A stretch of DNA of 64,000 nucleotides from an uncultured delta proteobacterium (GCA_963845515.1 CAWJSR010000006.1:132681-196680), one strand, 5' to 3'; shown: positions 40,049-58,641, counted from the stretch's first letter. The notes: generated by a model not told the origin, from the sequence alone. Made by a program: numbers and translations.

Positions 40049-40067
40049 CGGACGCTCGGCGAGGTCG

Positions 40068-41663
40068 TCAACGACCCTCGCCGGCTGGGATCCCCGGGAT
40101 GGGCAGGCCCGTCGCCACGGTGAAGAAGAACCGTCCGCCGCCGGACTGGTCGCCGAAGGCCTGGCGAGGGGCCACGGCCAGCACGCCCGTCACCGAGAGG
40201 TGGAGGCTCCGGACGAACCAGCCCACCGGCACCGACCACTCGAGCCCGATCCTCGCTCCGACGGAGGGTGAGAAGCCGAGCGCGGGCACTTCCTGTGCGT
40301 CGAACCCCGCTGTGCCGACGGCCCACCAGGTGAAGCCCGCGCCCATCGGCCGCGCGATGCCGTAGTCGAAGAGCATGAGGACCCGGGCGCGCTCCCCTCC
40401 GCTGAGCCTCACGATCGAGTAGGCCGACTCGCGTTGATCGCCGCGCGAGGCGATGCGGAGGGAGCCACCGAGGCCAGTGCCGCTGTCGAAGCCGAGCTGC
40501 AACAGCTGGCGCGACGGCCGGGGCGACGCTCGCGCCCCTCCCTCGCGGCCGGCGAGCGGGGAGGGTGGGACGCGAGGGCCGCTCCCGCTCGCCGCGGGCG
40601 GCGCCTGGGCGGCAGCGGCTTGCGCGGCCTCGCTCGCGTGGGGGACCGGAGCGGGCGATGGCCGTGCCGGGCTGGCGGCCTCCGCCGGCCCGGGGCCAGC
40701 CGCTTCAGGCTCGCGCTCACCCGTGTCCATCGGCTCGGCGTCGGCGGTCGCGACCCTCGGTCCGATGCTGCTGCGGTCGTGGCAGCCGGTGCACTGGGCC
40801 GGTCCCCTGGACACCTCGGTGTGGCACGAGATGCAGCGGGAGTGCGCGATCCGCGCCCCGAGCTCGACCTTCCCGACGCGCCCAGGACCGTGGCAGCGGG
40901 CGCAGGCCGCACGAGCGGCGAGGTGCTTGCGGTGGTCGAAGGTGACCGAGCCGAACGTCTCGAGCGTCCGGACGACCACGCCCGGCGGCGGAGGCAGCGG
41001 CTGCGGGGCAAGGAACCCCGGCGAGGGAGTCGACGCGCGACGCGGGCTGGGCTCGGGAGCCGCAGCAGGCTCGGCCGCAGCAACGGCGGGCTCCGGAGCC
41101 GCGGGCACGGCGACGGTCGGCTCAGCTACGACGGGCTCGGCGACGGCTGGCTCGGTTACCACGGGCTCGGCGACGGTTGGCTCGGCGACGGCTGGCTCGG
41201 TTACCACGGGCTCGGCGACCACGGGCTCCGGCGGCGGCTCGCTGGCCGGGGGCTCCGGTTCATCCGGCTTCGCCGGCTCGGCGGCGGCCATCCGCGTTCC
41301 GCCTCCAGTGGCTCCGCCGGCGTGGCAGCCGGTGCACGCCGTCGGCCCGCGCGACTGTTCGGTGTGGCAGGAGATGCAGCGGGCGTGGCCGATCCGCGCC
41401 CCGAGCTCCACCTTCCCCGCCGGGCCAGGACCGTGGCAGCGGGCGCAGGCCGCGCGCGCGGCGAGGTGCTTGCGGTGGTCGAAGGTCACCGGGCCGAACG
41501 TCGCCGGCGTCCGAACGACCACGTCCGGCGGTCTCGCCAGCGCTTGCTCGGCGAGCCCGTGGAGCGGCGCGAGCGGCGCCAGTGCCACGACCGGCGCGAC
41601 AGATCGGTCCGCTGCCCCCGCGAAGAGCACCAGCGCCAGGAGGGCGGCGGGGGCCGATGTCAC
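40068..41663 (-). CDS. two c7 (PpcA-like) triheme domains, Pro/Ala/Glu linkers and C-terminal putative beta-barrel
   Basis: signal peptide; two copies of VTFDHRKH-CARCH-CISCH-CTGCH (6 CXXCH); alternating beta-strand pattern at C-terminus. Confidence 0.8.
   Translation of the reverse strand: MTSAPAALLALVLFAGAADRSVAPVVALAPLAPLHGLAEQALARPPDVVVRTPATFGPVTFDHRKHLAARAACARCHGPGPAGKVELGARIGHARCISCHTEQSRGPTACTGCHAGGATGGGTRMAAAEPAKPDEPEPPASEPPPEPVVAEPVVTEPAVAEPTVAEPVVTEPAVAEPVVAEPTVAVPAAPEPAVAAAEPAAAPEPSPRRASTPSPGFLAPQPLPPPPGVVVRTLETFGSVTFDHRKHLAARAACARCHGPGRVGKVELGARIAHSRCISCHTEVSRGPAQCTGCHDRSSIGPRVATADAEPMDTGEREPEAAGPGPAEAASPARPSPAPVPHASEAAQAAAAQAPPAASGSGPRVPPSPLAGREGGARASPRPSRQLLQLGFDSGTGLGGSLRIASRGDQRESAYSIVRLSGGERARVLMLFDYGIARPMGAGFTWWAVGTAGFDAQEVPALGFSPSVGARIGLEWSVPVGWFVRSLHLSVTGVLAVAPRQAFGDQSGGGRFFFTVATGLPIPGIPAGEGR
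41111..41228 (-). repeat. 15-bp coding tandem repeat, EP(V/A/T)V(A/T), about 8 units
   Basis: repeated ggctcgg-cgac/ttac units with 15-bp period between the two c7 domains. Confidence 0.8.
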
Positions 41664-41741
41664 GCGGAGAGACTATCCCAGCCGTGAGGGTTCGAGGCGC
41701 CACCGCCACGTGTGGGCCGTCGGGCCCCTCGCCGGGGTGCG

Positions 41742-43532
41742 TCAGTTGGCCCGAGGTATGGGCGCGCGATCGCCCGGCGCTGGCGCGGCGACCGGCGCCG
41801 TGACGTCCGGTCCGGGGGCCGGGGCGGGAGCGGAGGATCCTGCCGGCGCGGGCGCGGCCGTCGGGGCGCTCGACTGCGAGCTCGGGGGAGCCTCCTTCGC
41901 CCTCGCCAGCTCACGCTCCCTGCGGAGCTCCTCGGTCCGCTCCTTCGAGTAGGCGCGGATCCCGGCGTCGCTGATCTTCACCTTCGCCGCGGCCTTGAGC
42001 GTCGCCACCCACTTGTCGGTCGCAGCCTTCCGCCTCTCCTGGAGGTCGAGCTTCTTCGCCTCGTCGCGGACCTCGTCGAAGGGGAGCTGCCTCGCCGGCT
42101 TCGTGCTCAGCACCTTGATGATGTGGAACCCCTCCTTCGACTTGACGGGGGCGCTCACCTCTCCCTCGGAGAGCGGCGCGATCGAGGCGAACTCCTCGGT
42201 GAGCTTGCGCCGCTCGATGAACCCGACGCGCCCGCCCTCCTTCGCGCTCGCCGCATGGATGGAGTGCGCCGCGGCGAGCTCCGCGAAGGGCTGGCCGGTC
42301 TTCAGCCTGGCCGCCACCTCGGTCGCGGTCTCCTCGGAGGCGACGAGGATCTGCGCCAGCTCGAGCTGGACGTCCACGGCGAACTGGTCGAGGTGGGCGT
42401 CGTAGTAGCGCCGCGCGTCCTCGTCGGATGGCTCGATCCCCTTCACGACGTAGTCGCGGAAGAGCACCCCCTCCACGAGCTCGTCCCTGCGGACCGCGAC
42501 CTTCCCTGTGACCTCCGGCCGCTGGCCGAAGCCCTGCGCGGTGGCCTCGAGGAGCACCAGCTCGCGGTTCACCAGGTCCTCGATCAGGGGCTTGCGCAGG
42601 ACCGGCCAGCGCTCGGAGAGCGCGTCACCCGCCTCGAGCTTGACGCGCTTCGCCACCGCCTCGGCCGTGACCTGGCCGCCTCGCCAGGTGGCGCAGGGGG
42701 TGGAGTCCTTCTTCGCAGCCGCCTCGCGCAGCGCCTCCACCGTCGGCGCGCAGTCGAGGAGGCGGGCGTCGTACTTCTTCCAGAGCCCGCCGTAGAGCTG
42801 CTCCTCGCGCGCGAGCCGGCTCCGCCGCTCCAGGATCCGGCGGATTCTGCGGCGTCACCTTCTCGAAGGGGCGGGCGCGCGACCTTCTTGCGCCCTTCGA
42901 CCCGCACGAACTCCCAGCCGGCGTCGGAGTGGAAGACGGGGCTCAGCTCGCCGTCCTTCAGCCCAAGCACCGCCCGCTCGTAGGCCTCGTCCGCTCCCCA
43001 GGTGATCACGACCATCCCGCCCTGCTTCGTCGACGGCGCGATCGACTTCGCCCTGGCGATCTTCTCGAGGTCGGCGCCGCCCAGGACCGTCGCACGGAGC
43101 GCCTCCGCCTCCGCCTGCGTCCCGACGACGACCTGCCGCGCCTCCACGGAATCCGCCAGCCGCTCGTGGACGCCCCGGACGGCCTCGTCGGTGGCCTTCA
43201 CCTTCTGCTCCACCTCCTCCTCGAAGGAAGAGCTCCACCATCCGCTGCGCGCGGACCCGCTCGACGGCGTCGAGGACCTCGGGGGAGTCCTGGAGGCCGA
43301 TGCGATAGCCCTCCTGGACGAAGAGCCTGCAATCGACGAGCCGCTCCACGTAGCGCCGGACCTCGGCCTCGTCCCCGAGGATCTTGTCGAGGGCGTAGTG
43401 GCTGCGCGCGAACTCGATCCGCAGCTCCTTGCCGGTGATCGTCTCGTCGTTGACCTTCGCCAAGTACCCGGCGGACCCGGCGGCGCAGCCGGCAGAGGCG
43501 ATCAGGGCGAGGGCGGCCATGCGGGAGGTCAT
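41742..43532 (-). CDS. parvulin (PpiC/SurA-like) peptidyl-prolyl isomerase lipoprotein, two PPIase domains, frameshifts ~43,222 and ~42,865
   Basis: lipobox ASAGC; LAKVNDETIT; LEKIARAKS...GELSPVFHSDAGW; FAELAAAHS...GEVSAPVKSKEGFHIIKV. Confidence 0.85.
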
Positions 43533-43579
43533 CGTGGCTCCGGCTTGCAGGGGTGGTGGCTTCGACGCACTGGGAGTAA

Positions 43580-44692
43580 TCACGGCCGCGTGAACGCGTC
43601 CAGCAGTTCGGCGACCACGCGGCGCGCGAGCGACGTGGTCTCCCGGGCCGCGCCGAGCTGGAGCAGCCCCTCGTAGTCCAGGCCGGTGCGGCGGTGGAGT
43701 CCGGACCAGAGGGTCCGCCCCGAGTCGGCGTCGAGCAGGCTCAGGTAGAGCTCCACCTCGGGGGTCTCTCCCCCCGCTGCGGTGGTCTGGCCGAACGTCA
43801 GGATGGTGCCGCGGACGAAGAGCGACGTCCCGAGCTCCTTCGCGAGCACGCGGAGCTGATCCAGCGAGAGCTGCACGGGGGAGCGGAGGCCGGTGGACGC
43901 GACCGCGAGGCGCAGGTCGGCCGTCGGGACGGTCGTCAGGGAGGCCTGGCCGCCCAGCCGGTCCTGGAGGATCGCCTCCACGACCCGGGTGGCGTCCCTG
44001 TCGCTGCCGAAGTTCTGGAGCGGGAGGATGGCGATGGGGACGTGTCGACTGATCGGCTCGCGCCAGCGGAAGGCCATGGGCGCCGGGAGCGTCATCGGGA
44101 GACCGGGCGGCGCGGCGCGCACCGCCTGGAGGTGGAGCGGGGGGACGGCCTCGAGCAGCGCGGCGACGAGCCTGTCGGCGACGCCCCGAACGCTGACGGC
44201 CCTGGAGAGGCCGAGCGCGCCGGCGGTCTCGGCGCCGGTGAGCCCCCGGACGTCGCTCCAGAGCACCGCGCCGGTGGGGGTCAGCAGCCGCGCGGCGATC
44301 GCGACCTCGGGATCCTTCTCGTCGTCGCGCCACGCGAGGACGGTCCCGACGACTGCGGCGTCGGCGCCCACCGCGAAGAGGAGCTCGCCGAGCTGGCCTG
44401 CGGGGAGCGAGTCGAGGTAGCGGACGCGGTGCGCCAGGAGCCAGCCCTCCACCGCCTCCTCCGGGACCACGTCGAACCCCTTCTTCGCGAGCGTGGCCGC
44501 CATCGTCTCCATCACGGTGGCGCGGGCACCGGCGATCCGCGTCACGTTCTCGAAGGGGACGATCGCGACGCGGGCGCGAGGGACGGCAGCGGGGGGCGCG
44601 GCCACCGCTGCGGGCGCGGCGGCGGCCGACCCCGGCGGCTCGCCCGTCGCGGCGGACAGCAGCAAGGCGGCGATGAGGATCGCGGGGGGCAT
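43580..44692 (-). CDS. periplasmic protein with two CsgG/TolB-N-like alpha/beta domains
   Basis: RVAIVPFENVT...GADAAVVGTV...GAVLWS and PIAILPLQN...FVRGTI...SGRTLWS repeats. Confidence 0.65.
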   Translation of the reverse strand: MPPAILIAALLLSAATGEPPGSAAAAPAAVAAPPAAVPRARVAIVPFENVTRIAGARATVMETMAATLAKKGFDVVPEEAVEGWLLAHRVRYLDSLPAGQLGELLFAVGADAAVVGTVLAWRDDEKDPEVAIAARLLTPTGAVLWSDVRGLTGAETAGALGLSRAVSVRGVADRLVAALLEAVPPLHLQAVRAAPPGLPMTLPAPMAFRWREPISRHVPIAILPLQNFGSDRDATRVVEAILQDRLGGQASLTTVPTADLRLAVASTGLRSPVQLSLDQLRVLAKELGTSLFVRGTILTFGQTTAAGGETPEVELYLSLLDADSGRTLWSGLHRRTGLDYEGLLQLGAARETTSLARRVVAELLDAFTRP

Positions 44693-44703
44693 CGCCGGGA
44701 CGC

Positions 44704-45279
44704 TCAGCGGAGCAGCCGCGCGAGCTCCTCGTGGATGATCTGGCTGGCGACGGTGGAGGCGGGCTCGCCGCCGATGCCGAAGAGGCGCGCGGTGACGGTC
44801 GCACCGCCGGCGCCCCGGACCACCGACCAGAGCGTGGCCCCCGACTCGACGTCGACGAGCTTGAGCTGCAGCTTCACGGTGGGGGACTGCGCGGTCCCGG
44901 AGGTGCGCCCCTCGTCGTACTCCAGGATCGAGCCGATGAAGATCGCCTGGGCCTTGAGCCCCTCGCCCAGCTTCTTGATCTCCTCGGGCGTCAGGCTGGC
45001 GGGCTCGAGCTGGTCGCGCCGGAGCGCGCGCGCGACCTGGCCCGGCTCGACGACCTGGAAGGCGTCGAAGCTGAGGAGCTCCGTGTAGAAGATCTTGTGC
45101 ACCCGCTCGGCGCTCAGCCGGTCGCTCGTCACGTTCTCGAAGGGGAGGACGGCGACGGTCGAGATGAGGCCGAGGTCGGCGTTGGTGCGGACGTAGCGCG
45201 CGGGGGCGGTGCAGCCGACGGCCGCGAGGGCGAGGAGGAGCAGGTGGGCTGCGATGCGAGGCACGGCGTCGGTTCCCAT
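44704..45279 (-). CDS. CsgG/GNA1162-like lipoprotein
   Basis: lipobox AAVGC; TVAVLPFENVT...AIFIGSILEY...LVDVESGATLWS. Confidence 0.7.
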   Translation of the reverse strand: MGTDAVPRIAAHLLLLALAAVGCTAPARYVRTNADLGLISTVAVLPFENVTSDRLSAERVHKIFYTELLSFDAFQVVEPGQVARALRRDQLEPASLTPEEIKKLGEGLKAQAIFIGSILEYDEGRTSGTAQSPTVKLQLKLVDVESGATLWSVVRGAGGATVTARLFGIGGEPASTVASQIIHEELARLLR

Positions 45280-45293
45280 GCGGCGGATCGGGT

Positions 45294-47480
45294 TCAGAGT
45301 CGCAGGCTGAACGTCACGAAGAGGTTCTGCTGTTTCACGGGGAGCGCACCGGTCCCCTTCGCCATGTTGTAGCTCAGTTGAAGGGTCGCGTGTGCGTTGA
45401 GGTCCCACCGGGGTGTCGCCGACGCCCGCCGGAACGACTGCCCGCTCAGCGGGTCGATCTCCTCGCTGTAGTCGAAGGCGAGCTGGACCGAGCCTCCCGG
45501 GAACGGCGACCAGGTGGCGCGGTAGCTCTGGACGACCCCTGCGCTCGAGCCCGCGTCCGCGTACCCCACGCGCCCGTGGAGCGTGAGCTGGGGGGACGGG
45601 CGGTACTGGGCGTCCGCGACGTAGAGTTGGTACGTGAGGATCCGCAGGAGCGGGACGCTGGTCTGGGCCGACGTGTCGCCGCGGCGGGACAGGATCCGCT
45701 GGGCGGTCGCGGACAGCCCGAGCTCCAGGTCCCGGAGGACCGGTCCGCGCGCGTGCCCGATCGCGGTCAGGTAGTCCGTCGTGCCACCGGCCACGATCCG
45801 CTGGCGAGTCAGGCCGGCGGAGGCCGAGACGTCCAGCGTCGGCAGGAGCCGCGCCTCGTTTCCGGCGGAGGCGCCGAGGGTCACCGTGCGGACGGGCTCC
45901 ATCGCCGAGGACATGCGGATCTCGTCGAGGGCGAAGCGGGCGTCGAGCCTGGCCTGGTAGCGGTCGATCGGCCGGTACTGGACCGCCCAGTTGGACGCGG
46001 TCGAGTCCTGCGAGTACCCGCCGGGCTGGCGGACCGTGGTCTGCGCCACCTTCGCGTCGTAGAGGAGGCCGGCGTACGGCCCGACGGCGGCGGTCACCGT
46101 GTTGACGGCGTCGGTCGACCAGCGCGCGGCGCCGCCGTACGGCGAGAGCGCGTTGGCGTTGAGCTGGCCCGAGTAGCCGACCTGGGCCTTCGACCAGGGG
46201 CGCGCCGTGGCGGTGAGGTTGAGCCCCTGCCGGACGCTGCTGGACACCCGCGTCTCGTCGGGCCGGAACGTCTCGTGGATGAAGCCCTGCAGCTCGGTCA
46301 CGAGCGTCTCCACGGTGTTCACGCCGAAGTTGACCGCCTTGAAGTACTGGGCCGACGTCGACGCGAAGGTGACGACGTAGGCGGAGAGGGTTGTGTCGAA
46401 GGCCGCCGGGTTGGCGTTCACCGGGATCCAATGGAGCCCGTCGAGGCTGGAATAGACGGACCACGTCACGCCGCCCCCGAAGGGGACGGGCGCGCCGACC
46501 GAGCTCCGGACGTGGATGCGGAGCTCGTCCAGCGCAGTGACGCGGCCCAGGTCCAGCCCGAGGTTGTTGAAGGAGGCTCCGAGCGGCCCCAGCGAGATCC
46601 CGGCGCTCACGTCGAGCGACCGGTCGACCAGGCGAGGCTCGGCCGGCATCAGGGGCGTGTCGTCAGGGAGGTTGTCGACGAGCTGGAGCCCGGACAGCGG
46701 CTCGAGCTCGACGGGGATGCTCACCGGCAGGCTGCCCTGCGCCGTCTGCTCGGTGCGGTAGGCGTCGAGCACATACTGCGTCGAGACCTGTGCGGACTCG
46801 CCGAAGGCGCGCGACCAGGCCGCCGTGACGCGCGGCCCCATGCTCAGTCGCGTGGCGCCGCGGAGGGCGTCCTCGTACCGGAGCACCCGCCCCTCGCTGC
46901 TCACGCGGAGCGAGGGGGAGGTGTAGCGGAACGTCACGCCGAGCCGGTCGTCGACGGTGCTGGTCGTCGCGCTCGAGTAGGCCAGCCGATCCAGGCCGAG
47001 CGTCGCGTCGCCGCGCTCGAACGGCCGCGCCGAGAGCCCGAGCGTGATCCGTTCGATGGTGCGCGAGGAGCTCGCGCCGGCGGTCGCGTCCACCCGGTCC
47101 TCGTCGTTCAGGCGATATGCCGCGGTCAGGCCGAAGGCGTCGGTCCGCCAGTCCAGCCCGGCCGAAGGAGTGAGCGTCCTCAGCCGGAGGTCGTAGTCGC
47201 TCCCTCCGGCGCGGACGGTGCCGGCGTCCTCCTGGTAACGGAGCGAGAGCCGATAGGAGATGGGGTACGAGACCTGGCGGCGGAAGTCGGCGCTGTAGGA
47301 CTGGCGAAGGTATTCGCTCGTGCTGCCGGTCGCGTCGTCCTGCGCCCAGGTGACCTCGCCGCGCCCGTTCAGGTCCGAGGCTCCGGCGGCGGAGACGGCG
47401 AGGGCCGCGAGGACGGAGAGCGCCCACCGCGCCGCCCTTGCCGGCGAGCCCCTCGCCAGGCTCTCGCGATCGACGCACAT
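45294..47480 (-). CDS. large outer-membrane beta-barrel with inserted discoidin-like domain
   Basis: signal peptide; amphipathic strands throughout, ending NLFVTFSLRL; central GLDLG...VYSSLDG...AQYFK insert. Confidence 0.7.
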   Translation of the reverse strand: MCVDRESLARGSPARAARWALSVLAALAVSAAGASDLNGRGEVTWAQDDATGSTSEYLRQSYSADFRRQVSYPISYRLSLRYQEDAGTVRAGGSDYDLRLRTLTPSAGLDWRTDAFGLTAAYRLNDEDRVDATAGASSSRTIERITLGLSARPFERGDATLGLDRLAYSSATTSTVDDRLGVTFRYTSPSLRVSSEGRVLRYEDALRGATRLSMGPRVTAAWSRAFGESAQVSTQYVLDAYRTEQTAQGSLPVSIPVELEPLSGLQLVDNLPDDTPLMPAEPRLVDRSLDVSAGISLGPLGASFNNLGLDLGRVTALDELRIHVRSSVGAPVPFGGGVTWSVYSSLDGLHWIPVNANPAAFDTTLSAYVVTFASTSAQYFKAVNFGVNTVETLVTELQGFIHETFRPDETRVSSSVRQGLNLTATARPWSKAQVGYSGQLNANALSPYGGAARWSTDAVNTVTAAVGPYAGLLYDAKVAQTTVRQPGGYSQDSTASNWAVQYRPIDRYQARLDARFALDEIRMSSAMEPVRTVTLGASAGNEARLLPTLDVSASAGLTRQRIVAGGTTDYLTAIGHARGPVLRDLELGLSATAQRILSRRGDTSAQTSVPLLRILTYQLYVADAQYRPSPQLTLHGRVGYADAGSSAGVVQSYRATWSPFPGGSVQLAFDYSEEIDPLSGQSFRRASATPRWDLNAHATLQLSYNMAKGTGALPVKQQNLFVTFSLRL

Positions 47481-47488
47481 CGCCCGGG

Positions 47489-48862
47489 TCACCTCGGGTA
47501 CGGGGCCCTGTACGTCCGGCTCGGAGGGTTCCGGACGTGGCAGGTGGCCGTGCAGGTGCCGCCGACGGCATCCTGGAGGTAGGCGGAGAGCCCCTGCGTG
47601 CGGAGGGCGAGGAGGGCAGGGAGCGTCGCGCTGCCGTGGGACTCGTGGCACGCGAAGCAGGAGTAGCCCTTCGCGACGTGACCCGCGTGGCCGCTGAAGC
47701 GGCTGAAGGCCGCGTCGGCGCCGCCCGTCGAATCGCCGTAGGTGCGGAACGAGTGGCACCCGAAGCAGAGGTCGGACTCGTAGGGCTGCGGATCCTCCAC
47801 GGCGGCCGCGTAACGCCGCGCGAGGATGTGCTGGAAGGACGAGCCGTGCGGACCGCGCGCCACGCCGTCGTCCGAGGAGTGGCAGTCCGAGCATGTGACG
47901 AGTCGCTCCGGTCCCCACCCCGGCACGAAGGACCGGCGATCGATCGTCCGGCTCCGGCCGCGCGACTCGACCGGATGGTAGGAGGCGTTGGCCGGGTTGA
48001 GGGCGACCGCGACGTCTACGCGGGCGGTCGCACGGTCGGTCCCCGAGGCGTGGCACTTGAAGCAGACCTCGAACTCGCGGACGGTGCTCGGATCGCCCGA
48101 CTTGAGCAGCGAGCGGAGCGGAGGCGTGCCGGGGGGGCCGTTGGAGATCCGCGCGCGCGACGTGCCGAGGAGCGCGCTGGCTCCTTCCGACGACGCGGGC
48201 GTCGAGCCGCGGGAGGCCGCGGCGTGCGGGTTGTGGCAGGCTCCGCAGGTGGCGCCGTCCGCGGGAGGGGCGAGCGTGCTCGCCGGCCCCCAGGCACCGA
48301 GCGACGTGACGGCGCCGGGATCCGGCAGGAGCGGGTGCCGGTACACCTTGGCGAACGCCGACGCGACGTCGGCGGCGGGGCCCCCGTCGTGGCACGCGAC
48401 GCAGAGCGACGTCCCGCGCACTCGCAGGAGGGCCGGGACGAGCCCCGATCGATCGATCACGCCGTGGGGGTCGTGGCAGTTGACGCACTTCCCCTCGTCC
48501 GCGGCGGCGCGCCCGCGCGGCTCCGGCCCCGGCCAGACCACCCCGGGAGAGCTCCCGTGCGCAGACGCCAGGTAGCGACGCTCCCCCTGCCAGCTCGACG
48601 CGGGAGGCTCGTGGCAGCGGACGCAGAGCGCGTTGTCGTTGCGGGCGAAGAGCTGGGCATGGCCGCTCCCCTCGTCCGCCTTCCGTCCGAGCGCGTCGCG
48701 CGGCGCGCCGTGGCAGTGGCCGCACTCCCCGCGGGCGAGGCCGGGGACCCGCACCACGCCGGTCTCGCGCCTGCCGTGGGCCGAGCGGGCGTACGCCCCT
48801 CCCCTGGCGGCAGCTGGCGCCGGAGCCGCCGCGAACGCCGCGGCGACGAGCAGCGCCCTCAC
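47489..48862 (-). CDS. multiheme cytochrome c (9 CXXCH + 1 CX3CH)
   Basis: signal peptide; motifs counted in the translation; GTGA overlap with upstream gene. Confidence 0.88.
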   Translation of the reverse strand: MRALLVAAAFAAAPAPAAARGGAYARSAHGRRETGVVRVPGLARGECGHCHGAPRDALGRKADEGSGHAQLFARNDNALCVRCHEPPASSWQGERRYLASAHGSSPGVVWPGPEPRGRAAADEGKCVNCHDPHGVIDRSGLVPALLRVRGTSLCVACHDGGPAADVASAFAKVYRHPLLPDPGAVTSLGAWGPASTLAPPADGATCGACHNPHAAASRGSTPASSEGASALLGTSRARISNGPPGTPPLRSLLKSGDPSTVREFEVCFKCHASGTDRATARVDVAVALNPANASYHPVESRGRSRTIDRRSFVPGWGPERLVTCSDCHSSDDGVARGPHGSSFQHILARRYAAAVEDPQPYESDLCFGCHSFRTYGDSTGGADAAFSRFSGHAGHVAKGYSCFACHESHGSATLPALLALRTQGLSAYLQDAVGGTCTATCHVRNPPSRTYRAPYPR

Positions 48863-49746: not shown

Positions 49747-50009
49747 CAGGCACACGCGGCGTCGACTGGCGGCGCGCGATCCTCCCCTGGTGGATCGACC
49801 TTCCTTCACGCGACGTGGACGGGAGAGGGTAGCACGGGTGGCGGCGGCGGCCTCGCTCCGGGCGTGCGGCAGAACGCACCACCTGCCTCGCGTCGGCGCT
49901 TCTCGTTCCGGGAGTCGTCGAGCGGCGAGGCTATAATGCGCTCTCCGTAACAGGGGGCCGCTCGCGGCGACGCGCGGACGGTCGTGCCTTCTGAGGGGAG
50001 CGGGAGCGC

Positions 50010-53000
50010 ATGAGGAGCGACGACGAGCGGGGATCACTCTTGCGGGTGCGCTGGCTCGCGGCCACCCTCGTGGTGGCAGTTGCGGTCCTGGGTGCCGTCG
50101 GCTGCGCCCCGACGAACCGCCGCGGCATCGGGCGGAGCTGCCGGGACTGCCACCAGAAGGTCCGGGACCAGCTCGACCGCAAGCACGTCCACGCACCGTT
50201 CGCGCAAGAGGCGGGGTGCGAGGAGTGCCACAAGCGCCACGGCATCGTCGGCGCGCTCGTCCTCAAGGACACGGAGCAGAAGGTCTGCCTCGCCTGCCAC
50301 GCCGACGTCGCGAAGCGGCTCGAGCAGCCGGTCGTCCACGCGGGGCTGAAGGACGGCAAGTGCACGAAGTGCCACGAGCCGCACGCCTCGGAGTTCGAGA
50401 ACCTCCTCAAGCAGGCCGGGACGGCCGCGTGCTTCGCGTGCCACGCGCGGGCGCCCTTCGAGCAGAAGGTCGTCCACGGGCCGGTGGCGAAGGGCTGCAG
50501 GGGCTGCCACGAGCCGCACGCCAGCGCCGAGCGGCACCTCCTCACCGCGCCGAGGCAGCCGCTGTGCGCGGGCTGCCACGGCGACGCGCCCGCGCTGGCG
50601 AAGGCGCACTCCGGCTACCCCGTCGCAGGGACCGACTGCGGTGGCTGCCACGGCCCGCACTCCTGGGAGGCGAAGGACGGGCTGCGCAGGAGCGACCACC
50701 CGGTGGCCGCCGACTGCTCCGGGTGCCACGCGCCGCCCACGTCGCAGCGCCCCTTCGCGACGGCGAAGAAGGTCCCCGAGCTCTGCTTCGAGTGCCACCC
50801 GGACGCGAAGGAGGCGCTCGCCCGCCCCGTGAAGCACGAGGTGGCGGGCGACTGCGCGACCTGCCACTCGCCCCACGCCACCGAGGTCGCGCCGCTCCTG
50901 AAGGAGGGGCAGCGCTCCCTCTGCGGCGGCTGCCACGACCTCGAGAAGAAGCTGACCGCGAAGTCGAGCCACGCCCCCGCGGCGGAGGGGAAGTGCAGCG
51001 CGTGCCACCAGCCGCACGGCAGCGCCAACGCGAAGCTGGTCGCGGAGAGCGCCGACGCGCTCTGCTTCCGCTGCCACGCGAAGCAGCGCGACGCGTGGGC
51101 CGCAGCCAGGGTGACGCACGTCCCGGTGAAGGAGGGGATGTGCTCCTCGTGCCATGACCCCCACGGCTCGGCCCAGCCGAAGCTCCTCGTGAAGCCCGAG
51201 CGGGAGGCCTGCCTCGCCTGCCACGACGCGAAGCTCTTCGACGGCGTGCACGTCCACGCGCCCGTGCTGGAGGGGCGGTGCACCGGCTGCCACGATCCGC
51301 ACGCGAGCGGGTCGGCGAAGCTCCTGCGGAAGGTCGGCGGCGAGCTCTGCGCGACCTGTCACGCCCAGGTCACCCGCGCGGCGCCCGGGCGGAAGCTGCA
51401 CGGGCCGACCGCGCGAGGTGCGTGCGCGACCTGCCACCGCCCGCACGCGTCGGAGGAGCCCTCGCTGCTCGCGAAGGATCAGTCCACGCTCTGCGGCTCC
51501 TGCCACGCCGGCATCGCCGAGCAGCAGAAGAAGCCCAAGGCGCACCAGCCGTTCCGCGGCGGCTCCTGCACCTCCTGCCACGACCCGCACGGGAGCAAGA
51601 ACAAGCGGTTCGTGAAGAACGACGTGAAGCTCCTCTGCCTCGACTGCCACGAGAAGCTGCGGGATCGGCTCGAGGGGAAGGGGGCGTCCGTGCACCAGCC
51701 GGTCGCGTCGGGTGAGTGCCTCACCTGCCACTCGGGCCACGGATCGGACAACGCCGCCCTCCTCTCGATGGCCCCCGGCACGCTCTGCCTCGGCTGCCAC
51801 GACGTGAAGGCGGAGCCGATCGCCGCGAAGCACCGCGGCCTCCTGCCGCGCGGCGCGGCCTGCACAGGCTGCCACGACCCCCACGTGTCGACGCGGAAGG
51901 GGCTCGTCCGCGCGGTCGGCCACCCGCCGTTCATCAACGAGGACTGCGGCGCCTGTCACCAGGCGGCCGGAAAGGGGATCTCGGCGACGCTCGTCGCGAA
52001 GGGGCGGAAGCTGTGCGACACCTGCCACTCCGACGGCGAGAAGAAGTTCGACGCGAAGTACCAGCACACGCCGGTCAAGGAGGGCGACTGCGCCTCGTGC
52101 CACGATCCGCACGCGGGCGCCAACGAGAAGCTGCTCGTGAAGCCCGCGGCGTTGCTCTGCGCCGCGTGCCATGACGTCGTCGGCAAGAAGAAGTCGGTCC
52201 ACACGCCGGTGCGGGAGGGGGCGTGCGTCAAGTGCCACTCGCCGCACTCCTCCCCGGAGAAGAACGGCCTCTCGAGGTCCGGGAACGCCCTCTGCCTCTC
52301 GTGCCACGAGGACGTGAAGAAGCGGCTCCAGGCCAAGGTGGTCCACGCGGCCGTGTCGGGCGGCGACTGCACCGACTGCCACTCCCCGCACGCTTCCGAC
52401 CACGTGCCGCAGCTCGTCGACGCGCCCCGCGCGCTCTGCGAGCGGTGCCACGCGCTGGCCGGCGCCGCGTTGCGCAAGGCCCACCTCGGCTTCCCGCTCG
52501 CCAAGGCCGACTGCGTCTCCTGCCATGACCCCCACGGCTCCCCGGAGAAGGGGATGATCCGTGCGGCACCTCACAAGGTCTTCCGCAGCTGCGAGAAGTG
52601 CCACAAGACCGGCGGGGCGAGCCCCGGCGAGCTGGCGGCGAAGGGGACCCAGCTCTGCTTCCGGTGCCACTCGGAGAAGCGCGCAGCGCTGCAGAAGCCG
52701 GGCGCTCACGAGGGGGCGAAGGGGGACTGCCTCACCTGCCACACCCCGCACGCGTCGAACGAGCGCGGCCTCTCCGCCGGGCCGGAGCGCTCCGTCTGCC
52801 TCCAGTGCCACGACACGATCCAGCACCTCCTCGCCACGTCGAGGACCGTCCACCCCACCAAGGTCCAGAAGGGGAAGTGCACCATCTGCCACGAGCCGCA
52901 CCAGACGGCGATCCCGCACCTGCTCGCGAAGCCGGCGCTGGAGCTCTGCCGCACCTGCCACGGCGCCCACGCCCAGTTCGGCCACCCGGTCGGGTCCAAC

Positions 53001-53195
53001 GTGATGGACCCGAGGACGAGCACGCCGCTCACGTGCCTCTCCTGCCACGATCCTCACGGCGCGCAGTGGAGCTCGCTGCTCCTCGACAACCCCTCGCAGG
53101 CGCTCTGCATCCGCTGCCACGACCCGAGCGGGACGATGGGCGGCAAGCGGATGAAGCCAAGATCCTCGCCCGCGGGGCGGCCGGGGAAGCCGTGA
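50010..53195 (+). CDS. 42-heme paired-CXXCH cytochrome c lipoprotein
   Basis: lipobox GAVGC; 42 CXXCH counted, mostly as H-x-P...CxxCHxPH...LL...CxxCH doublets. Confidence 0.93.
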   Translation: MRSDDERGSLLRVRWLAATLVVAVAVLGAVGCAPTNRRGIGRSCRDCHQKVRDQLDRKHVHAPFAQEAGCEECHKRHGIVGALVLKDTEQKVCLACHADVAKRLEQPVVHAGLKDGKCTKCHEPHASEFENLLKQAGTAACFACHARAPFEQKVVHGPVAKGCRGCHEPHASAERHLLTAPRQPLCAGCHGDAPALAKAHSGYPVAGTDCGGCHGPHSWEAKDGLRRSDHPVAADCSGCHAPPTSQRPFATAKKVPELCFECHPDAKEALARPVKHEVAGDCATCHSPHATEVAPLLKEGQRSLCGGCHDLEKKLTAKSSHAPAAEGKCSACHQPHGSANAKLVAESADALCFRCHAKQRDAWAAARVTHVPVKEGMCSSCHDPHGSAQPKLLVKPEREACLACHDAKLFDGVHVHAPVLEGRCTGCHDPHASGSAKLLRKVGGELCATCHAQVTRAAPGRKLHGPTARGACATCHRPHASEEPSLLAKDQSTLCGSCHAGIAEQQKKPKAHQPFRGGSCTSCHDPHGSKNKRFVKNDVKLLCLDCHEKLRDRLEGKGASVHQPVASGECLTCHSGHGSDNAALLSMAPGTLCLGCHDVKAEPIAAKHRGLLPRGAACTGCHDPHVSTRKGLVRAVGHPPFINEDCGACHQAAGKGISATLVAKGRKLCDTCHSDGEKKFDAKYQHTPVKEGDCASCHDPHAGANEKLLVKPAALLCAACHDVVGKKKSVHTPVREGACVKCHSPHSSPEKNGLSRSGNALCLSCHEDVKKRLQAKVVHAAVSGGDCTDCHSPHASDHVPQLVDAPRALCERCHALAGAALRKAHLGFPLAKADCVSCHDPHGSPEKGMIRAAPHKVFRSCEKCHKTGGASPGELAAKGTQLCFRCHSEKRAALQKPGAHEGAKGDCLTCHTPHASNERGLSAGPERSVCLQCHDTIQHLLATSRTVHPTKVQKGKCTICHEPHQTAIPHLLAKPALELCRTCHGAHAQFGHPVGSNVMDPRTSTPLTCLSCHDPHGAQWSSLLLDNPSQALCIRCHDPSGTMGGKRMKPRSSPAGRPGKP

Positions 53196-54151
53196 GCCGG
53201 TGCGCGGCGCTGCTCCTCGCGGCCGCGCTCGCAGGGCGTGGCTCCGCGCAGGACACGCTCGCGCACGAGCGGGGGGCGCAGAGCGTGACCGAGGTCCGGC
53301 CGGAGCTGGTGATCTGGGGCGGCTATTACAGCGGCGCCTTCGCCGGGGTCGCAGGCGTCCACTGCGATCGGCTCACCGGCGAGATCCTGGTGGCGGACCC
53401 GGTGGCGAACTCGATCGAGATCTTCGACGAGCGGGGGGCGCCGATCTTCGCCTTCACCGACGCCGCGCACCTCCACGGCCCAACCCGCCTGGCGGTCGAC
53501 GCGCGGGGGCGGATCCACGTCCTCGACGGCGACCGGGACAGGATCAAGGTCTTCAACTACCGCGGCGACTTCGAGGGGGAGCTGGAGCTCACCGGCTTCG
53601 ACGTGCCGGGCGGGCCCGTCTTCACCGCGATCGCCTTCGACGTCAACGGAGACCTGTACGTCGGAGAGTCGCGCAGCGGCCAGGTCGTGGCGTTCGGCCG
53701 CACGCTGAGGCCCAAGCTCCGGATCGGGACCCTGGGTGATGGGCCCGGGCAGCTCGACGGCATCGTCGGGATCGCCCTCGACGCGAAGAACGTCTACGTG
53801 GCCTCCCAGGACGGGATCGCGATCCACGTCTTCACGCGCCAGGGGAAGCTGCTGCGCGCGTGGGGTTACCACGACGTGGGGCTCCACAACGTCTCGCTCC
53901 CCGCCGGGATCGCGGTCGACGAGAAGGGGCGCGTCGTCCTGCTCGACACGCTCCGGCAGGAGATCAAGTACTTCGAGCCGGACGGCCGGCTGATCGGTCT
54001 CTTCGGCGGGATCGGCAGGCAGCCGGGCGCGGTCGCCTACCCCACGGACCTCTCGCTCGATCGGAGCGGGCGGCTCTGCGTTGCCGACGGTGGGAACAAG
54101 CGCGCGCAGGTGCTCGTCCCAATCGAAGCTGCGACGGATCGCGCACGCTGA
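53192..54151 (+). CDS. NHL-repeat beta-propeller
   Basis: repeated P.GIAVD..G.(I/L)YV.D....I.VF units; signal peptide; GTGA overlap. Confidence 0.88.
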   Translation: MSRCAALLLAAALAGRGSAQDTLAHERGAQSVTEVRPELVIWGGYYSGAFAGVAGVHCDRLTGEILVADPVANSIEIFDERGAPIFAFTDAAHLHGPTRLAVDARGRIHVLDGDRDRIKVFNYRGDFEGELELTGFDVPGGPVFTAIAFDVNGDLYVGESRSGQVVAFGRTLRPKLRIGTLGDGPGQLDGIVGIALDAKNVYVASQDGIAIHVFTRQGKLLRAWGYHDVGLHNVSLPAGIAVDEKGRVVLLDTLRQEIKYFEPDGRLIGLFGGIGRQPGAVAYPTDLSLDRSGRLCVADGGNKRAQVLVPIEAATDRAR

Positions 54152-54220
54152 CTGCCAGGAATCATCTGCCGCAGACCCGCACGGAATGTATGCCCGTACG
54201 GAGCGTGTGAAGGCACGCAA

Positions 54221-54252
54221 GAGGTGGGTGGCTTCGCCCACGCACCCACCTC
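54221..54252. other. 10-bp perfect inverted repeat upstream of the omcS-like gene
   Basis: gaggtgggtg-N12-cacccacctc. Confidence 0.6.
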
Positions 54253-54291
54253 ACCAAAGCGGCAACCATGCGGACACTCACGATCAGCGAC

Positions 54292-54307
54292 GGGCATGGC
54301 AAGTGCT
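54292..54307 (+). promoter_or_regulatory. possible sigma-54 promoter
   Basis: GGGCATGGCAAGTGCT fits GG-N10-GC but departs from TGGCAC/TTGC. Confidence 0.35.
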
Positions 54308-54393
54308 TAGCCCTCCTTGCCGCCAACCCATAGAGGAAGACGACGGCGGGGCACTCCATTCCGGGGCGCCCGATGTGCGGGGAGGGTGTCCAT

Positions 54394-55500
54394 ATGAAGA
54401 AGCTTCTGGTCGCGATCGCCACGCTCGCGTGTGCCGGAAACACCTATGCCGGTGATTTCCATGTGTCGTCGACGCTCAGGTGCAGCCAGTGCCACACCAT
54501 GCACGCCAGCCGGCAGCACCAGCTCAACGCCGCGGGCGAGGACCTCGACTTCCCTCTGGCCGCGCAGGGGAACCCCCAGCGCAACCTGCTGATCCAGGAC
54601 GGGACCAACGCGACCTGCCTCGCGTGCCATGACAACGCCGCCGCGTACCCCGACGTGCTCGGCGCGAACACCGGCTCCGTCGACGTGAACCTCCGGTCTG
54701 CCGGGGCGCTGAACGGGAGCATCGGGACCAACGACCCGCTCGTCTTCGCGGACTTCATGGGCCACACGCTCGGCAGCGCCGACGCGCCTCCCGGCTGGAT
54801 CGGCATCTACGAGCCGAGCCCCCAGGAGAACTTCAACTGCGCCAACTGTCACGCGGTCCACGGGTCGGCGGCGTACCGCAACCTCGGCCTCTCGCCGTAC
54901 ATGGGGACGCCGAACCACGCGCACGACGCGACCAACCCGTTCGCCTCGGCCGGCCCGACCTACAACGCCCAGGACCTGACGACGGGGCTTCGCGCGACGA
55001 CGGTCAACAACGGCACGCTCGACGTGGTCATCGGCACGGACGCCCGCAACTACGCGACCACCGCGGTCACCTTCGGCATCGGCAGCAGCAACACGACGGC
55101 GACGAACGGCATGAACGCCTACTGCGCAGTCTGCCACGGCAACTTCCACGGTGACGCCAACACCCGCGACCTCATCGGCGGCGTCGACTTCGTCCGCCAC
55201 CCGACGTCCGGCGTGCAGCGGGCCGACACGACGCTCCTCTACCAGAACGACACCAGCCATCCCGGCATGGTCGACCAGACCGCGCTCGTCCGCCCGGCGT
55301 GGGTGACCGGCCCCAACGGCGCCTTCGAGGCCGCCTGCCTCACCTGCCACAAGGGGCACGGCAACGCCCGCGGCTACGCGCTCCTCTACCCCGAGCACAC
55401 CGCCGCGCCCGCCGACTTCGAGAACGGCGACGCCCTCGCCGTCTCCGGCGAGTACCCGATCCGGAACCTCTGCATCACCTGCCACCCGATGGGCCGGTAG
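54394..55500 (+). CDS. OmcS-like hexaheme cytochrome (candidate nanowire subunit)
   Basis: signal peptide; FH-x6-CSQCHTMH, CLACH, GH, CANCHAVHG..YRNL, MNAYCAVCH, RHP, CLTCHKGHG, LCITCH. Confidence 0.88.
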   Translation: MKKLLVAIATLACAGNTYAGDFHVSSTLRCSQCHTMHASRQHQLNAAGEDLDFPLAAQGNPQRNLLIQDGTNATCLACHDNAAAYPDVLGANTGSVDVNLRSAGALNGSIGTNDPLVFADFMGHTLGSADAPPGWIGIYEPSPQENFNCANCHAVHGSAAYRNLGLSPYMGTPNHAHDATNPFASAGPTYNAQDLTTGLRATTVNNGTLDVVIGTDARNYATTAVTFGIGSSNTTATNGMNAYCAVCHGNFHGDANTRDLIGGVDFVRHPTSGVQRADTTLLYQNDTSHPGMVDQTALVRPAWVTGPNGAFEAACLTCHKGHGNARGYALLYPEHTAAPADFENGDALAVSGEYPIRNLCITCHPMGR

Positions 55501-55514
55501 TCCCTGGAGGGGCC

Positions 55515-57437
55515 ATGAACCACACACGATATAAGCTGACCCTCGCGGTCATCGGGCTGCTTGCAGCAGGGCCCGCGCTGGCCGCGACCCTGTCGGTCTA
55601 CGCGAAGATGGGCGGTGGCGTCCCCACCGGCGCCGCCGCCTACGCCATCGGCCGGGTCGCTCCCGCTTCCGGCTCTGCCGCAACCACCATCAACTGCGCG
55701 ACGAACGCCGTCGCCAACTGCATCGACAGCGCGGTCGCCACCTCGGCGGTCGTCCTGCTCGAGCCGACGCTCGTCGCCGACGCGCAGTTCGTCAACTGGT
55801 CGGGCTGCACGTCAGTGGCCGGCAACGTCTGCACCGTCTCCATGACGAGCAACAAGACCGTCACCGCCAACTTCAAGCCGGCCATGTTCCAGCTCGGCGT
55901 GAAGACCTACCCCGTGCTGCCCAGCCCCTCACTCTACGGCGGCGTCCTCACGGCGCCGACGGAGGCGGTCAGGAACGCTGGTGGGCCCGTCGTGGCTGCT
56001 GCGCTCGACTGCAGGTCCGGTAGCACGACCAACACGGTCTGCTCCGGCTTCGTCCCGAACGGCACGCCCATCGTCGTCACGGCCGTCCCGATCGCCGGCT
56101 CCAAGGTCACCACCTGGACGGGCTGCTCCACGTCCACCGCGACGACCTGCACGATCGCGTCGATGCTGGGGCCGAAGTCGGTCTCCGCGTCCTTCGGTCC
56201 GGCCGCCATCCCGCTCACTGCCCAGGTCCAGGGTGCCGGCAAGATCACGACGCCGACCACCTCCCTGAACCCGATCAACTGTGACCCGTCACTCGCGACG
56301 CCCGACTGCGCCGGTGCGGTCGCCTCGGGCGGCAACGTCACGTTCACGGCCACCCCGGTCTCCGGGTACACGTTCATGGGTTGGACGGGCGCGTGCACCG
56401 GCACGGCCACGACCTGCGCGTTCACCGGCGTCACGTCGGCCAAGACGGTCACGGCGACCTTCAAGTCGTCGTCGTGCACCTCCTGCCACGGCAGCCCGCC
56501 CTCGACCCACACCGGGACGCTGGCCGCCAACTGCGCCAACTGCCACACGGGCTACACCGCCAGCACGGTCACGGCCGCCACCCACATGGACGGCATTGCC
56601 CAGGCGCCCACGTGGAACCGCACGGAGCCCACCGCCAACTTCGGGTTCAACATCGAGATCCTCGCGGCCACCCGCGGCGACGCTGCGGCGGTTCCGGCCG
56701 TGTACCCGACGGTCGACCTGAGGGCGACCGACGCCTCGGGCGCGGTCATCGATCTGGTCGCGGCCATCGCGGCCGGGGAGTTCGTCTCTCCTTCCGGGTC
56801 GAGCGGCATTCCCAGGATCATGTTCGGTGAGATCCAGCCAGACGGCTCGTTCCTGTCGAAGTTGGGAACCACGTCGATGTCCACCAGCGACACGATGGCG
56901 ACCACGCGGCTCGTCGACCTCGGCGGCGGCGTCTACCGCTACACGCTCGGCACGCTCCTCGGCCGGACGCCCCAGGTCGGGACGCGCAGCTACCGCGTCG
57001 CCACCTACGGCGCCCGGTTCTTCAAGCGCGCTGACGCGTCGTACATCCAGTTCCCCAACTACGACTGGTATGACTTCGTCCCCGATGGTGTCGCTCCGAC
57101 GACGACCCCGAAGATGACGGTCGCCGACGCGGCCTGCGACAAGTGCCATGGTGGGCTGCAGATGCACGGCCGCCGCCGCGGCGTGCAGATCTGCCTCACC
57201 TGCCACAACATCAACATGCCGCTCGGCACGGGGAACTCGGACGGGTTCAAGTGGGACCTCAAGAACCTGGCCCACAAGCTCCACTCCGGCATGAACTACG
57301 TCGCCGGCACGCGGCCAGACGGCGCGACCGCCAGGGAACTCGGACGGGTTCAAGTGGGACCTCAAGAACCTGGCCCACAAGCTCCACTCCGGCATGAACT
57401 ACGTCGCCGGCACGCGGCCAGACGGCGCGACCGCCAG
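55515..57437 (+). CDS. secreted cytochrome with InlB-B-like repeats and an OmcA/MtrC-like heme domain; truncated
   Basis: signal peptide; three F..W.GC...C......K.V.A.F repeats; CTSCH, CANCH, CDKCH..H...CLTCHN...AHKLH; ends at the duplication and junction. Confidence 0.75.
57231..57436 (+). repeat. exact 103-bp tandem duplication
   Basis: 57231-57333 equals 57334-57436 (gggaactcgg...gaccgcca). Confidence 0.92.
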
Positions 57438-57439
57438 CG

Positions 57440-57470
57440 GCTGGGGCACTCCGCGGGCCGGTCCCTCGGT
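57440..57470. other. compositional junction, probable assembly chimera
   Basis: abrupt fall in GC and change of codon style; genes on both sides are broken here. Confidence 0.85.
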
Positions 57471-58555: not shown

Positions 58556-58641
58556 GCTGGATCGGCATTCACAGGCAGAACCAGTGCAACGATTGCAACG
58601 ATTGCAATTGTTGCATATACCAACAGAATACGGCTGTCCAT
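57450..58641 (-). CDS. secreted/surface protein with tandem Calx-beta-like repeats; frameshift ~57,730-57,770; truncated
   Basis: hydrophobic signal; LSLADARVTEG...DAVFEPDETMTLTV...ATGTIVNDD 117-aa units. Confidence 0.8.

Follow-up and report, generated by a model that had tools for sequence, protein, structure and literature searches.

The closest described relatives of the system reported here are the OmcS cytochrome nanowire of Geobacter sulfurreducens and the osc genes that accompany it. We analysed a 64,000-nucleotide (nt) stretch of metagenomic DNA, called the window throughout (G000:C6:132681-196680), which holds a cluster of 11 genes for multihaem cytochromes and putative helper proteins; the source metagenome-assembled genome (MAG) comprises 58 contigs and 4.74 Mb, is 88% complete and has a G+C content of about 72%. 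In G. sulfurreducens the omcS/osc cluster reportedly extends over GSU2504-GSU2493, and Shen et al. (2025; said to be Cell Chem Biol 32:239) reportedly call the osc machinery 'widespread' in their title. The available text of another account proposes roles for the osc operon in OmcS folding (OscH), secretion (OscE, F and G) and morphology (OscD), equates oscC, oscI and oscJ with GSU2501, GSU2495 and GSU2494 respectively, and states, citing Shen et al. 2025, that OscEFG are needed for OmcS secretion in Geobacter (PMC13194489). An eight-gene block, GSU2500-GSU2493, lies 3' of the OmcS-like gene GSU2501 and has been tied to nanowire maturation and secretion, and GSU2495 is given as a protein of about 70 kDa with 26 haems, as far as the accessible part of that source goes (bioRxiv 10.1101/2025.11.06.686851). 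In both OmcS and OmcE, a histidine of the adjacent subunit ligates a haem, according to a partial text (PMC9473688).

Our analyses show that the cluster is a distinct branch of the machinery already described in Geobacter. Since OmcS homologs in Anaeromyxobacter and the osc machinery are already in print, at least in the excerpts available, the kind of system is known, and an earlier note on this DNA that had presented the cluster as the best candidate in the window for an undescribed system overstated the case for a lineage variant of the osc machinery. Its wider proposal, an OmcS-type assembly system with a different layout, is supported: the hexahaems model on the OmcS fold, the helper genes have osc homologs and the gene set recurs in related genomes. 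We consider it likely that this is an osc-type cluster from a divergent lineage, serving to make, fold and export OmcS-like hexahaem cytochromes and to feed them electrically at the cell surface. The window version is a separate lineage with an old pair of short OmcS-like subunits, a nonahaem cytochrome at the place of OscD and its nearest relatives in Acidobacteriota. A literature search found no text on a lineage with short subunits, no OscD and fused OscI and OscJ, Shen et al. 2025 and its supplements being outside that search.

Because many spurious reading frames are open at this high G+C content, genes were assigned from codon-position G+C (third-position GC phase) together with reading of open reading frames (ORFs) and their translations. 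Positions 40068-57436 resolve in this way into 11 contiguous genes in two divergent arms, seven on the minus and four on the plus strand, with 73 CXXCH motifs (A 6, E 9, F 6, G 42, I 6, J 4; letters as in Table 1); gene number, arms and motif count were all correctly given by the earlier note. Elsewhere in the 64-kb window just two stop-to-stop frames of at least 80 codons contain a CXXCH, with one motif each, so the density within the cluster is far beyond chance. Judged by eye, all 11 products begin with signal-like hydrophobic N-termini and D, the prolyl isomerase and G have lipobox-like cysteines, from which it appears that all cluster products are exported. Domain searches of the window proteins used Pfam and NCBIfam, and no OmcS- or Osc-specific NCBIfam model matched the cluster proteins.

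Two of the cytochromes, F and I, are homologs of OmcS with a predicted OmcS fold. F matches OmcS (6ef8) directly in the Protein Data Bank (PDB), in four collinear stretches (phmmer, E 2.1e-9). The same search of the PDB with I gave no direct match, only rows at chance level; a Geobacter OmcS homolog matches I (tblastn, E 2.6e-7), and the I family aligns end to end with the F family (hhalign, probability 100, E 8.3e-49, 281 columns). There are 460 relatives of F at E<=0.001, those among the 120 listed being 243-334 amino acids (aa) long and mostly unnamed metagenome proteins, and 269 relatives of I. For alignment, sequences were chosen across the identity range from the 120 listed for each type, 53 of the F type (A1) and 52 of the I type (A2). 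The six CXXCH motifs are invariant in both, accompanied in the F type by invariant H32, H46, H117, H144 and H269 and by H218 in at least 90% of sequences, and in the I type by eight further invariant histidines; the bis-histidine pattern of the OmcS family, six CXXCH and six further conserved histidines, is thus present in F and I. A CHTMH motif is also conserved in both types, and its histidine, invariant in both families, aligns in F with residue 16 of OmcS, which we take to be the inter-subunit haem ligand.

Structure prediction agrees with this assignment. The AlphaFold2 model of F, made from A1, has a predicted local distance difference test (pLDDT) score of 77.9 and 6ef8_A as its top Foldseek match (E 8.4e-4), and VIA-align places 219 of its residues over OmcS 1-406 with Z 12.5 and a root-mean-square deviation (rmsd) of 3.9 Å. 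The AlphaFold2 model of I (pLDDT 70.3) aligns with the same chain over 258 residues, with Z 12.5 and rmsd 4.4. Identity to OmcS across the aligned residues is 24% for F and 20% for I, and the next chain after OmcS in VIA-align is OmcE, at Z 4.9 and Z 3.5 respectively. The two short OmcS paralogs recognised by the earlier note therefore both model on the OmcS fold, at the same Z. They share with OmcS (PDB 6EF8/6NEF) the six CXXCH, the fold and the CHTMH motif, F being collinear in sequence as well, but F is about 140 and I about 60 residues shorter, and the window subunits are known from sequence and models. They also differ from the omcE nanowire cluster of Desulfuromonadia, where the subunit is the tetrahaem OmcE in the available part of the description (PMC13712944), a protein that F and I match weakly.

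The genes around F and I extend the comparison to the assembly machinery. Our reference was a contig of a Geobacter sp. MAG (G041:C175; locus L037, extended upstream as L092), on which an NHL protein, a 452-aa OmcS homolog, a 487-aa YNCE-type propeller, proteins of 726, 204 and 375 aa, a 604-aa prolyl isomerase, products of 657 aa with 26 CXXCH and of 437 aa with 16 CXXCH, a 302-aa NHL protein and a second OmcS homolog (g8, 438 aa; E 1.8e-102 against 6ef8) follow one another. This order and these sizes fit the published description of GSU2500-2493, and we infer the osc letters D to K of the reference genes from order and size. The window has homologs for seven of the eight genes of the GSU2500-2493 block, in the same relative order, including an OscEFG-type trio in a row and in the same order, of 728, 191 and 370 aa against 726, 204 and 375 aa in Geobacter. 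By blastp the 728-aa protein matches Geobacter g1 (E 2.8e-13), D matches g2 (E 1.2e-35, 38% identity) and C matches g3 (E 8.6e-20). The prolyl isomerase matches the 604-aa Geobacter gene with E 4.7e-16 once three extra bases, discussed below, are removed, and with E 9e-9 in its C-terminal part as given; the parvulin chaperone of the earlier note is thus confirmed by this OscH match and by its Pfam rotamase domains. Osc homology of the helper genes, another of its claims, holds against genes that stand beside a bona fide OmcS homolog in the Geobacter MAG.

Two features of the block are changed in the window. G, with 21 paired-CXXCH stretches in Pfam, matches the 26-haem Geobacter g5 (657 aa) over residues 11-650 (blastp, E 1.5e-131) and then the 16-haem g6 (437 aa) over residues 667-1038 (E 1.1e-72), and is therefore a fusion of an OscI-like and an OscJ-like cytochrome (26 + 16); the single giant periplasmic wire of the earlier note corresponds to this 42-haem protein, with an origin in two. 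Searched by tblastn, the YNCE propeller (OscD) matched nothing in the window and nothing in 40 kb of a related genome, G018. H, an NHL protein in Pfam (E 4.7e-15) that matches the 302-aa Geobacter g7 (blastp, E 8e-14), is consequently the counterpart of the NHL gene (GSU2493) and not of OscD, so that an NHL propeller is indeed present, as had been noted, but its equation with the osc beta-propeller, which is of the YNCE type, was mistaken. In sum, the window resembles G. sulfurreducens osc in having OmcS-like genes beside OscE, F, G, H, I, J and NHL homologs in the same circular order. It is unlike it in its OmcS-derived nonahaem E at the OscD place, OscD itself not being found; in its fused OscI and OscJ; in its short OmcS-like subunits (295 and 368 aa), which form an old, conserved pair; in the extra genes A and J and the inversion of one arm; and in that D and the OmcS-like proteins fall into clades apart from the Geobacter/Anaeromyxobacter type.

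Comparison with relatives bears on this layout. In G018, from the same family and another genus, and in three loci of Thermoanaerobaculia (Acidobacteriota; L010, L011 and L012), nine core genes are co-directional in the order G-H-I-F-E-barrel-D-C-isomerase, and the divergent layout of the window is accordingly an inversion of one arm. The prediction that the gene set would be found in a related genome is borne out by these four loci, and the divergent arms, which are real, mark an inversion within an otherwise co-directional operon. A promoter and terminator scan of the 49747-50009 region between the arms found neither a sigma-70-like site nor a terminator, other promoter types being beyond its scope. 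The F profile was used to fetch 76 loci, of which at least 16 join an OmcS-like match with D-type and G-type genes, from phyla that include Planctomycetota, Gemmatimonadota, Krumholzibacteriia, Zixiibacteriota, Ignavibacteriales, Armatimonadetes and Thermodesulfobacteriota among others; nine of them carry a G divided near residue 650.

The host is provisionally placed in the Anaeromyxobacteraceae (Myxococcota), an assignment which rests on the source names of two F homologs (two of the 120 listed F relatives are so labelled) and on the make-up of the set of relatives. Of 40 relative genomes G018 alone has a close F homolog (E 2.7e-74), G007-G009 giving matches near E 7e-4, and the D-type profile matches 15 of 24 genomes of the same family. 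G008 and G009, the two inspected, are of the same host family and have the same kind of system as the window, but their version is Geobacter-like, with OmcS of 427-448 aa, a YNCE propeller and split 26- and 16-haem genes, at 37-69% identity to Geobacter proteins, whereas the window version groups with the Acidobacteriota loci. In a maximum-likelihood tree of D-type proteins (n=21) the window joins G018 (97/92), and the three Acidobacteriota form the sister group of this pair (87/89, not starred); six same-family genomes with Geobacter and Desulfosudis make up a distinct clade (100/99) elsewhere in the tree. The tree of OmcS-like proteins (n=21) separates the canonical and FCB-type sequences from the window lineage (100/100), and that lineage itself divides into F (85/93) and I (94/95) clades, both with members from the window, G018, Acidobacteriota and Planctomycetota (the G018 row for I being a 153-aa fragment). 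F and I occur together and in the same order in six of six loci of the lineage (the window, G018, three Acidobacteriota and one Planctomycetota), which with the tree clades shows the pair to be old and conserved. The patchy distribution suggests lateral transfer. Two further members of the family (G007:C19 and G015:C1) each have two D-type lipoprotein loci 25-45 kb apart, and some relatives may hold two osc-type clusters.

The nonahaem cytochrome E belongs to the same family history. Its residues 11-224 align with the F family (hhalign, probability 97.2, E 3.1e-11), so that three OmcS-derived genes stood in a row, I, F and E in the ancestral order, and E adjoins F also in G018, L010, L011 and L012. 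There was no sequence match to E in the PDB, and its Atlas neighbours are generic multihaem clusters only. As a separate observation, 13 loci (L043, L039, L044, L045, L047, L052, L055, L059, L061, L066, L069, L078 and L083) have E-like multihaem genes, scoring 83-280 bits, within a few kb of weak OmcS-like matches. They carry the labels Chloroflexota, Actinomycetota (including an Intrasporangium isolate), Coriobacteriia and Thermincola, show no outer-membrane helper genes at the thresholds used, and may be cases of an OmcS-like protein paired with a nonahaem one in organisms that lack an outer membrane.

Table 1. Features of the cluster and its borders, in window coordinates (gene letters as used in the text)
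Feature	Position	Strand or size	Description
A	40068-41663	minus	exported hexahaem; two PpcA-like triheme c7 modules with Pro/Ala/Glu-rich linkers; C-terminal part of about 170 aa
Prolyl isomerase	41742-43533	minus	OscH-like lipoprotein, putative chaperone; two parvulin-type rotamase domains (Pfam, in two frames)
C	43580-44692	minus	370-aa exported protein; two PelC/GNA1162-like domains (OscG position)
D	44704-45279	minus	191-aa PelC/LpoB-like lipoprotein (OscF position); lipobox-like AAVGC by eye
Large outer-membrane protein	45294-47480	minus	728-aa exported protein, probable barrel (OscE position)
E	47489-48883	minus	nonahaem cytochrome, 464 aa, 9 CXXCH; N-terminal half OmcS-like
F	48859-49746	minus	short OmcS-like hexahaem, 295 aa, about 267 aa mature; candidate filament subunit
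Divergent intergenic region F/G	49747-50009	263 nt	inversion junction relative to relatives
G	50010-53195	plus	1061-aa lipoprotein-like cytochrome, 42 CXXCH
H	53192-54151	plus	319-aa exported NHL-repeat beta-propeller (GSU2493 position); start overlaps stop of G
I	54394-55500	plus	second OmcS-like hexahaem, 368 aa, about 349 aa mature; old paralog of F
J	55515 to ~57333	plus	exported cytochrome; InlB-type B-repeats and start of an OmcA/MtrC-type domain, 4 CXXCH
Tandem duplication	57231-57436	103 nt	perfect, 100% identity; shifts frame of J (lost after ~57300)
Repeats	57380-58382	three tandem copies of ~351 nt	79-98% identity; right after the break in J, lower GC

In Pfam, D matches LpoB (E 4.8e-9) more strongly than CsgG (21.9 bits against a cut-off of 20.8, E 1.2e-4), and C is a GNA1162-like protein slightly under the cut-off (25.6 bits). 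Profiles were built from 15 D-type sequences (A4; the L016 and L058 ORFs, with unclear starts, were left out), nine C-type sequences (A5) and ten sequences of the large protein (A3); Cys22 is conserved in at least 90% of the D-type sequences. Against the PDB, A4 has PelC 5t11 first (E 1.6e-9), then GNA1162 and LpoB, and A5 has PelC 5t11 and 9h80_C first (E 7.5e-12), with GNA1162 and LpoB following, while no CsgG chain appears at E<=1 for either. On profile comparison C and D are best described as PelC-like, the CsgG match of D in Pfam being marginal; the two CsgG-like proteins of the earlier note stand as LpoB/CsgG/GNA1162-type lipoproteins in Pfam, for which PelC-like appears the better name. 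The 728-aa protein has no family in Pfam or NCBIfam. Its nearest Atlas clusters are unnamed or called PEP-CTERM-associated outer membrane protein, Phe or Tyr is the last residue in five of nine homologs, and A3 positions 303-402 match the galactose oxidase N-terminal domain, which is discoidin (F5/8 type C)-like (PDB, E 4.5e-5). It is a probable outer-membrane beta-barrel with an inserted F5/8-type-C (discoidin)-like domain, and the beta-barrel of the earlier note is to that extent plausible.

As in the PelC-PelB exporter of Pseudomonas aeruginosa (5T10, 5T11, 5T0Z, 9H80), PelC-like genes adjoin the gene of a large outer-membrane protein, D and the second domain of C being closest to PelC among solved structures. 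It could accordingly be proposed that the barrel and its lipoproteins export a polysaccharide or other matrix component, which the cytochromes of the shared operon decorate, and the discoidin/CBM32-like domain of the barrel and the naming of its Atlas neighbours after PEP-CTERM exopolysaccharide-associated outer-membrane proteins point the same way as the PelC matches. We regard this as very improbable: Pfam and NCBIfam find no glycosyltransferase, polymerase or Wzx/Wza-type gene among the 11, the barrel, D and C genes travel with OmcS-like genes across phyla, and the Geobacter OscEFG are reported, in the available text, as needed for OmcS secretion (PMC13194489). The window also differs from PelC-PelB in that its cargo would be a folded haem protein and not a polysaccharide, that it has two different PelC-like proteins, one of them with two domains, in which a ring is conjectural, and that no similarity of its barrel to PelB was detected.

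The remaining cytochromes, A and J, are lineage-specific extra genes: at the thresholds used, neither G018 nor any of the 76 loci holds a counterpart. A matches Cytochrome_C7 in Pfam (E 1.5e-10) and the cytochrome c7 model of Geobacter in NCBIfam (E 3.4e-30, below the cut-off), and its first module matches PDB chains of PpcA-E and c7 across its whole 70 aa (E 7e-13 to 3e-10). The C-terminal 177 aa of A resemble IcmE/DotG in the low-complexity part only, with no stretch passing alone, and the resemblance was treated as compositional. J matches Flg_new_2 and MtrC domain II/IV in Pfam (profile 2-66 of 176), and the OmcA/MtrC model in NCBIfam at profile positions 74-214 of 672.

Several observations weigh against an osc-type nanowire cluster. 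In G. sulfurreducens only OmcS is known to polymerise, and not OmcT, GSU2501 or OmcJ, while OmcS homologs are not separable functionally by sequence, according to the accessible part of one source (bioRxiv 10.1101/2025.11.06.686851); an OmcS-like fold is thus no proof of a filament. The mature lengths of F (about 267 residues, or some 45 per haem) and I (about 349) fall short of the 407 of OmcS, 6ef8_A is ranked first for I in Foldseek at a weak E of 0.11, and pLDDT is <50 over the first 40-50 mature residues of each model, the part that contains the first haem motif and the candidate inter-subunit histidine. OscD was not found in the 88% complete MAG with the Geobacter query, an empty answer that itself shows nothing. 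The 728-aa protein is no more than a probable barrel, and its match to Geobacter g1 spans only the last 105 aa. Finally, the sequence as it stands has three breaks in the isomerase frame, each from one extra base (42845, 42866 and 43224), and a truncated J. A complex prediction with two mature copies of F and four haems returned no answer (score 0.00) and carries no weight on binding either way.

Porin-cytochrome conduits, too, are made up of a barrel, periplasmic multihaem proteins and outer cytochromes. The locus could then encode a conduit across the outer membrane with monomeric surface cytochromes, the barrel and lipoproteins housing or anchoring G or E and F and I acting as non-polymerising surface reductases, a role that OmcT, GSU2501 or OmcJ may have in Geobacter. 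Besides the singular status of OmcS among its paralogs, in the partial source just mentioned, the OmcA/MtrC-type domain of J and the short F and I, in a clade apart from canonical OmcS (100/100), would suit such a conduit. We think it unlikely, since the helpers correspond one by one to homologs in the OmcS maturation and secretion block, no MtrB/OmbB-type porin family was matched in Pfam or NCBIfam, and the histidine aligned with the OmcS inter-subunit ligand region is invariant.

Sequence quality bears on whether the locus works at all. The three isomerase frame breaks, together with the perfect 103-nt duplication and the loss of run coverage at the end of J, might indicate a decaying or chimeric, non-working remnant, with a broken isomerase, a truncated J and a misjoined right end. 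Contigs from two runs of one freshwater sediment metagenome study (X1 and X2) cover 40000-57275; both lack bases 42845, 42866 and 43224, and no other indel common to both is listed in that interval. A second contig of the MAG, C7 (L107; 3075 nt), duplicates 41604-44679 (99.25% identity; 12 mismatches, 11 gap positions) as an alternative assembly of the isomerase/C region. It too is without the three bases, and each of the two versions has separate indels. Without them the isomerase is a single 595-aa frame, collinear with both the Geobacter and the G018 gene and with 38% identity over 538 aa to the latter. Upstream of the cluster, the AhpC/TSA peroxiredoxin (35880-36328) and RsmB (36341-37652) are each split between two frames, as read from halves of their Pfam profiles. 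The isomerase breaks are therefore read as assembly indel errors and not as decay, and with the other nine genes open a remnant is scarcely credible.

The right end of the cluster is less regular. The end point of 57437 given by the earlier note marks the end of the 103-nt duplication. After the break in J the G+C content falls from 0.67-0.76 to 0.52-0.60, run-contig depth is 0.07/0.7 at 57276-57892 and 0 beyond, and neither run assembly covers the ~351-nt repeat region. The repeats are probably part of a repetitive surface-protein gene with minus-strand ORFs at 57399-57893 and 57709-58641. Elsewhere in the MAG, C8:102-1622 (L095) matches OmcA/MtrC profile positions 244-672, complementary to the part in J (73-216), and the start of C8 may be the missing end of J. 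The two have no nucleotide overlap; J was probably cut short by a misjoin or rearrangement. Within the cluster, run contigs bridge the isomerase/C, D/barrel, barrel/E, H/I and I/J junctions. None of those listed bridges 49940-49953 between F and G, so the inversion junction is documented by the MAG contig alone. Two irregular run contigs were also seen. One from X2 omits 891 nt within G (50392-51284), probably by collapse over its near-periodic paired-CXXCH repeats, or else as a shorter allele. In one from X1, at depth 4, position 55669 (start of J) is linked to 48825 (start of E) through 39 letters of other sequence; either a differently arranged strain or an artefact of the assembly graph, via similar signal-peptide sequence, may lie behind it. 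The left flank of the cluster is housekeeping (RNase HII, thymidylate kinase, RsmB and ribosomal protein S2).

An osc-type cluster of a divergent lineage, the explanation we prefer, would work as follows. All products would be exported by Sec and loaded with haem in the periplasm, where the lipoprotein isomerase would chaperone the proline-rich OmcS-like subunits. The PelC-like D and C may form a ring beneath the large barrel, as PelC does under PelB, and so provide the exit through the outer membrane. F, I or both would then polymerise outside the cell in the manner of OmcS, the histidine of one subunit ligating a haem of the next; filament formation is proposed here by analogy with OmcS. Lipoprotein G, nonahaem E and the tandem PpcA-like A would pass electrons through the periplasm to the base of the filament, and a feeding role for A is in line with the report, in the available text, that PpcA-E charge OmcS filaments (PMC10954620). 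A more far-reaching version sees a new minimal OmcS-type nanowire, with F and I as a heteropolymer or as tip and base, an OscD-less machine, E as membrane-proximal adaptor and A as built-in charger; this is possible, though we hold it to be doubtful.

Which OmcS-like cytochromes form conductive filaments, and what minimal machinery assembles them, are open questions, for which this lineage is a natural comparison, with its shorter subunits, conserved subunit pair, fused periplasmic wires and OscD not found. The lineage is common in metagenomes, as the numbers of F-type and I-type relatives given above show, and is present in Acidobacteriota and Anaeromyxobacteraceae, groups important for iron cycling in soil and sediment. 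The likeness of its lipoproteins to PelC offers a concrete, testable model of how a folded haem protein leaves the cell. If F and I do polymerise, the known range and the design space of cytochrome nanowires would widen.

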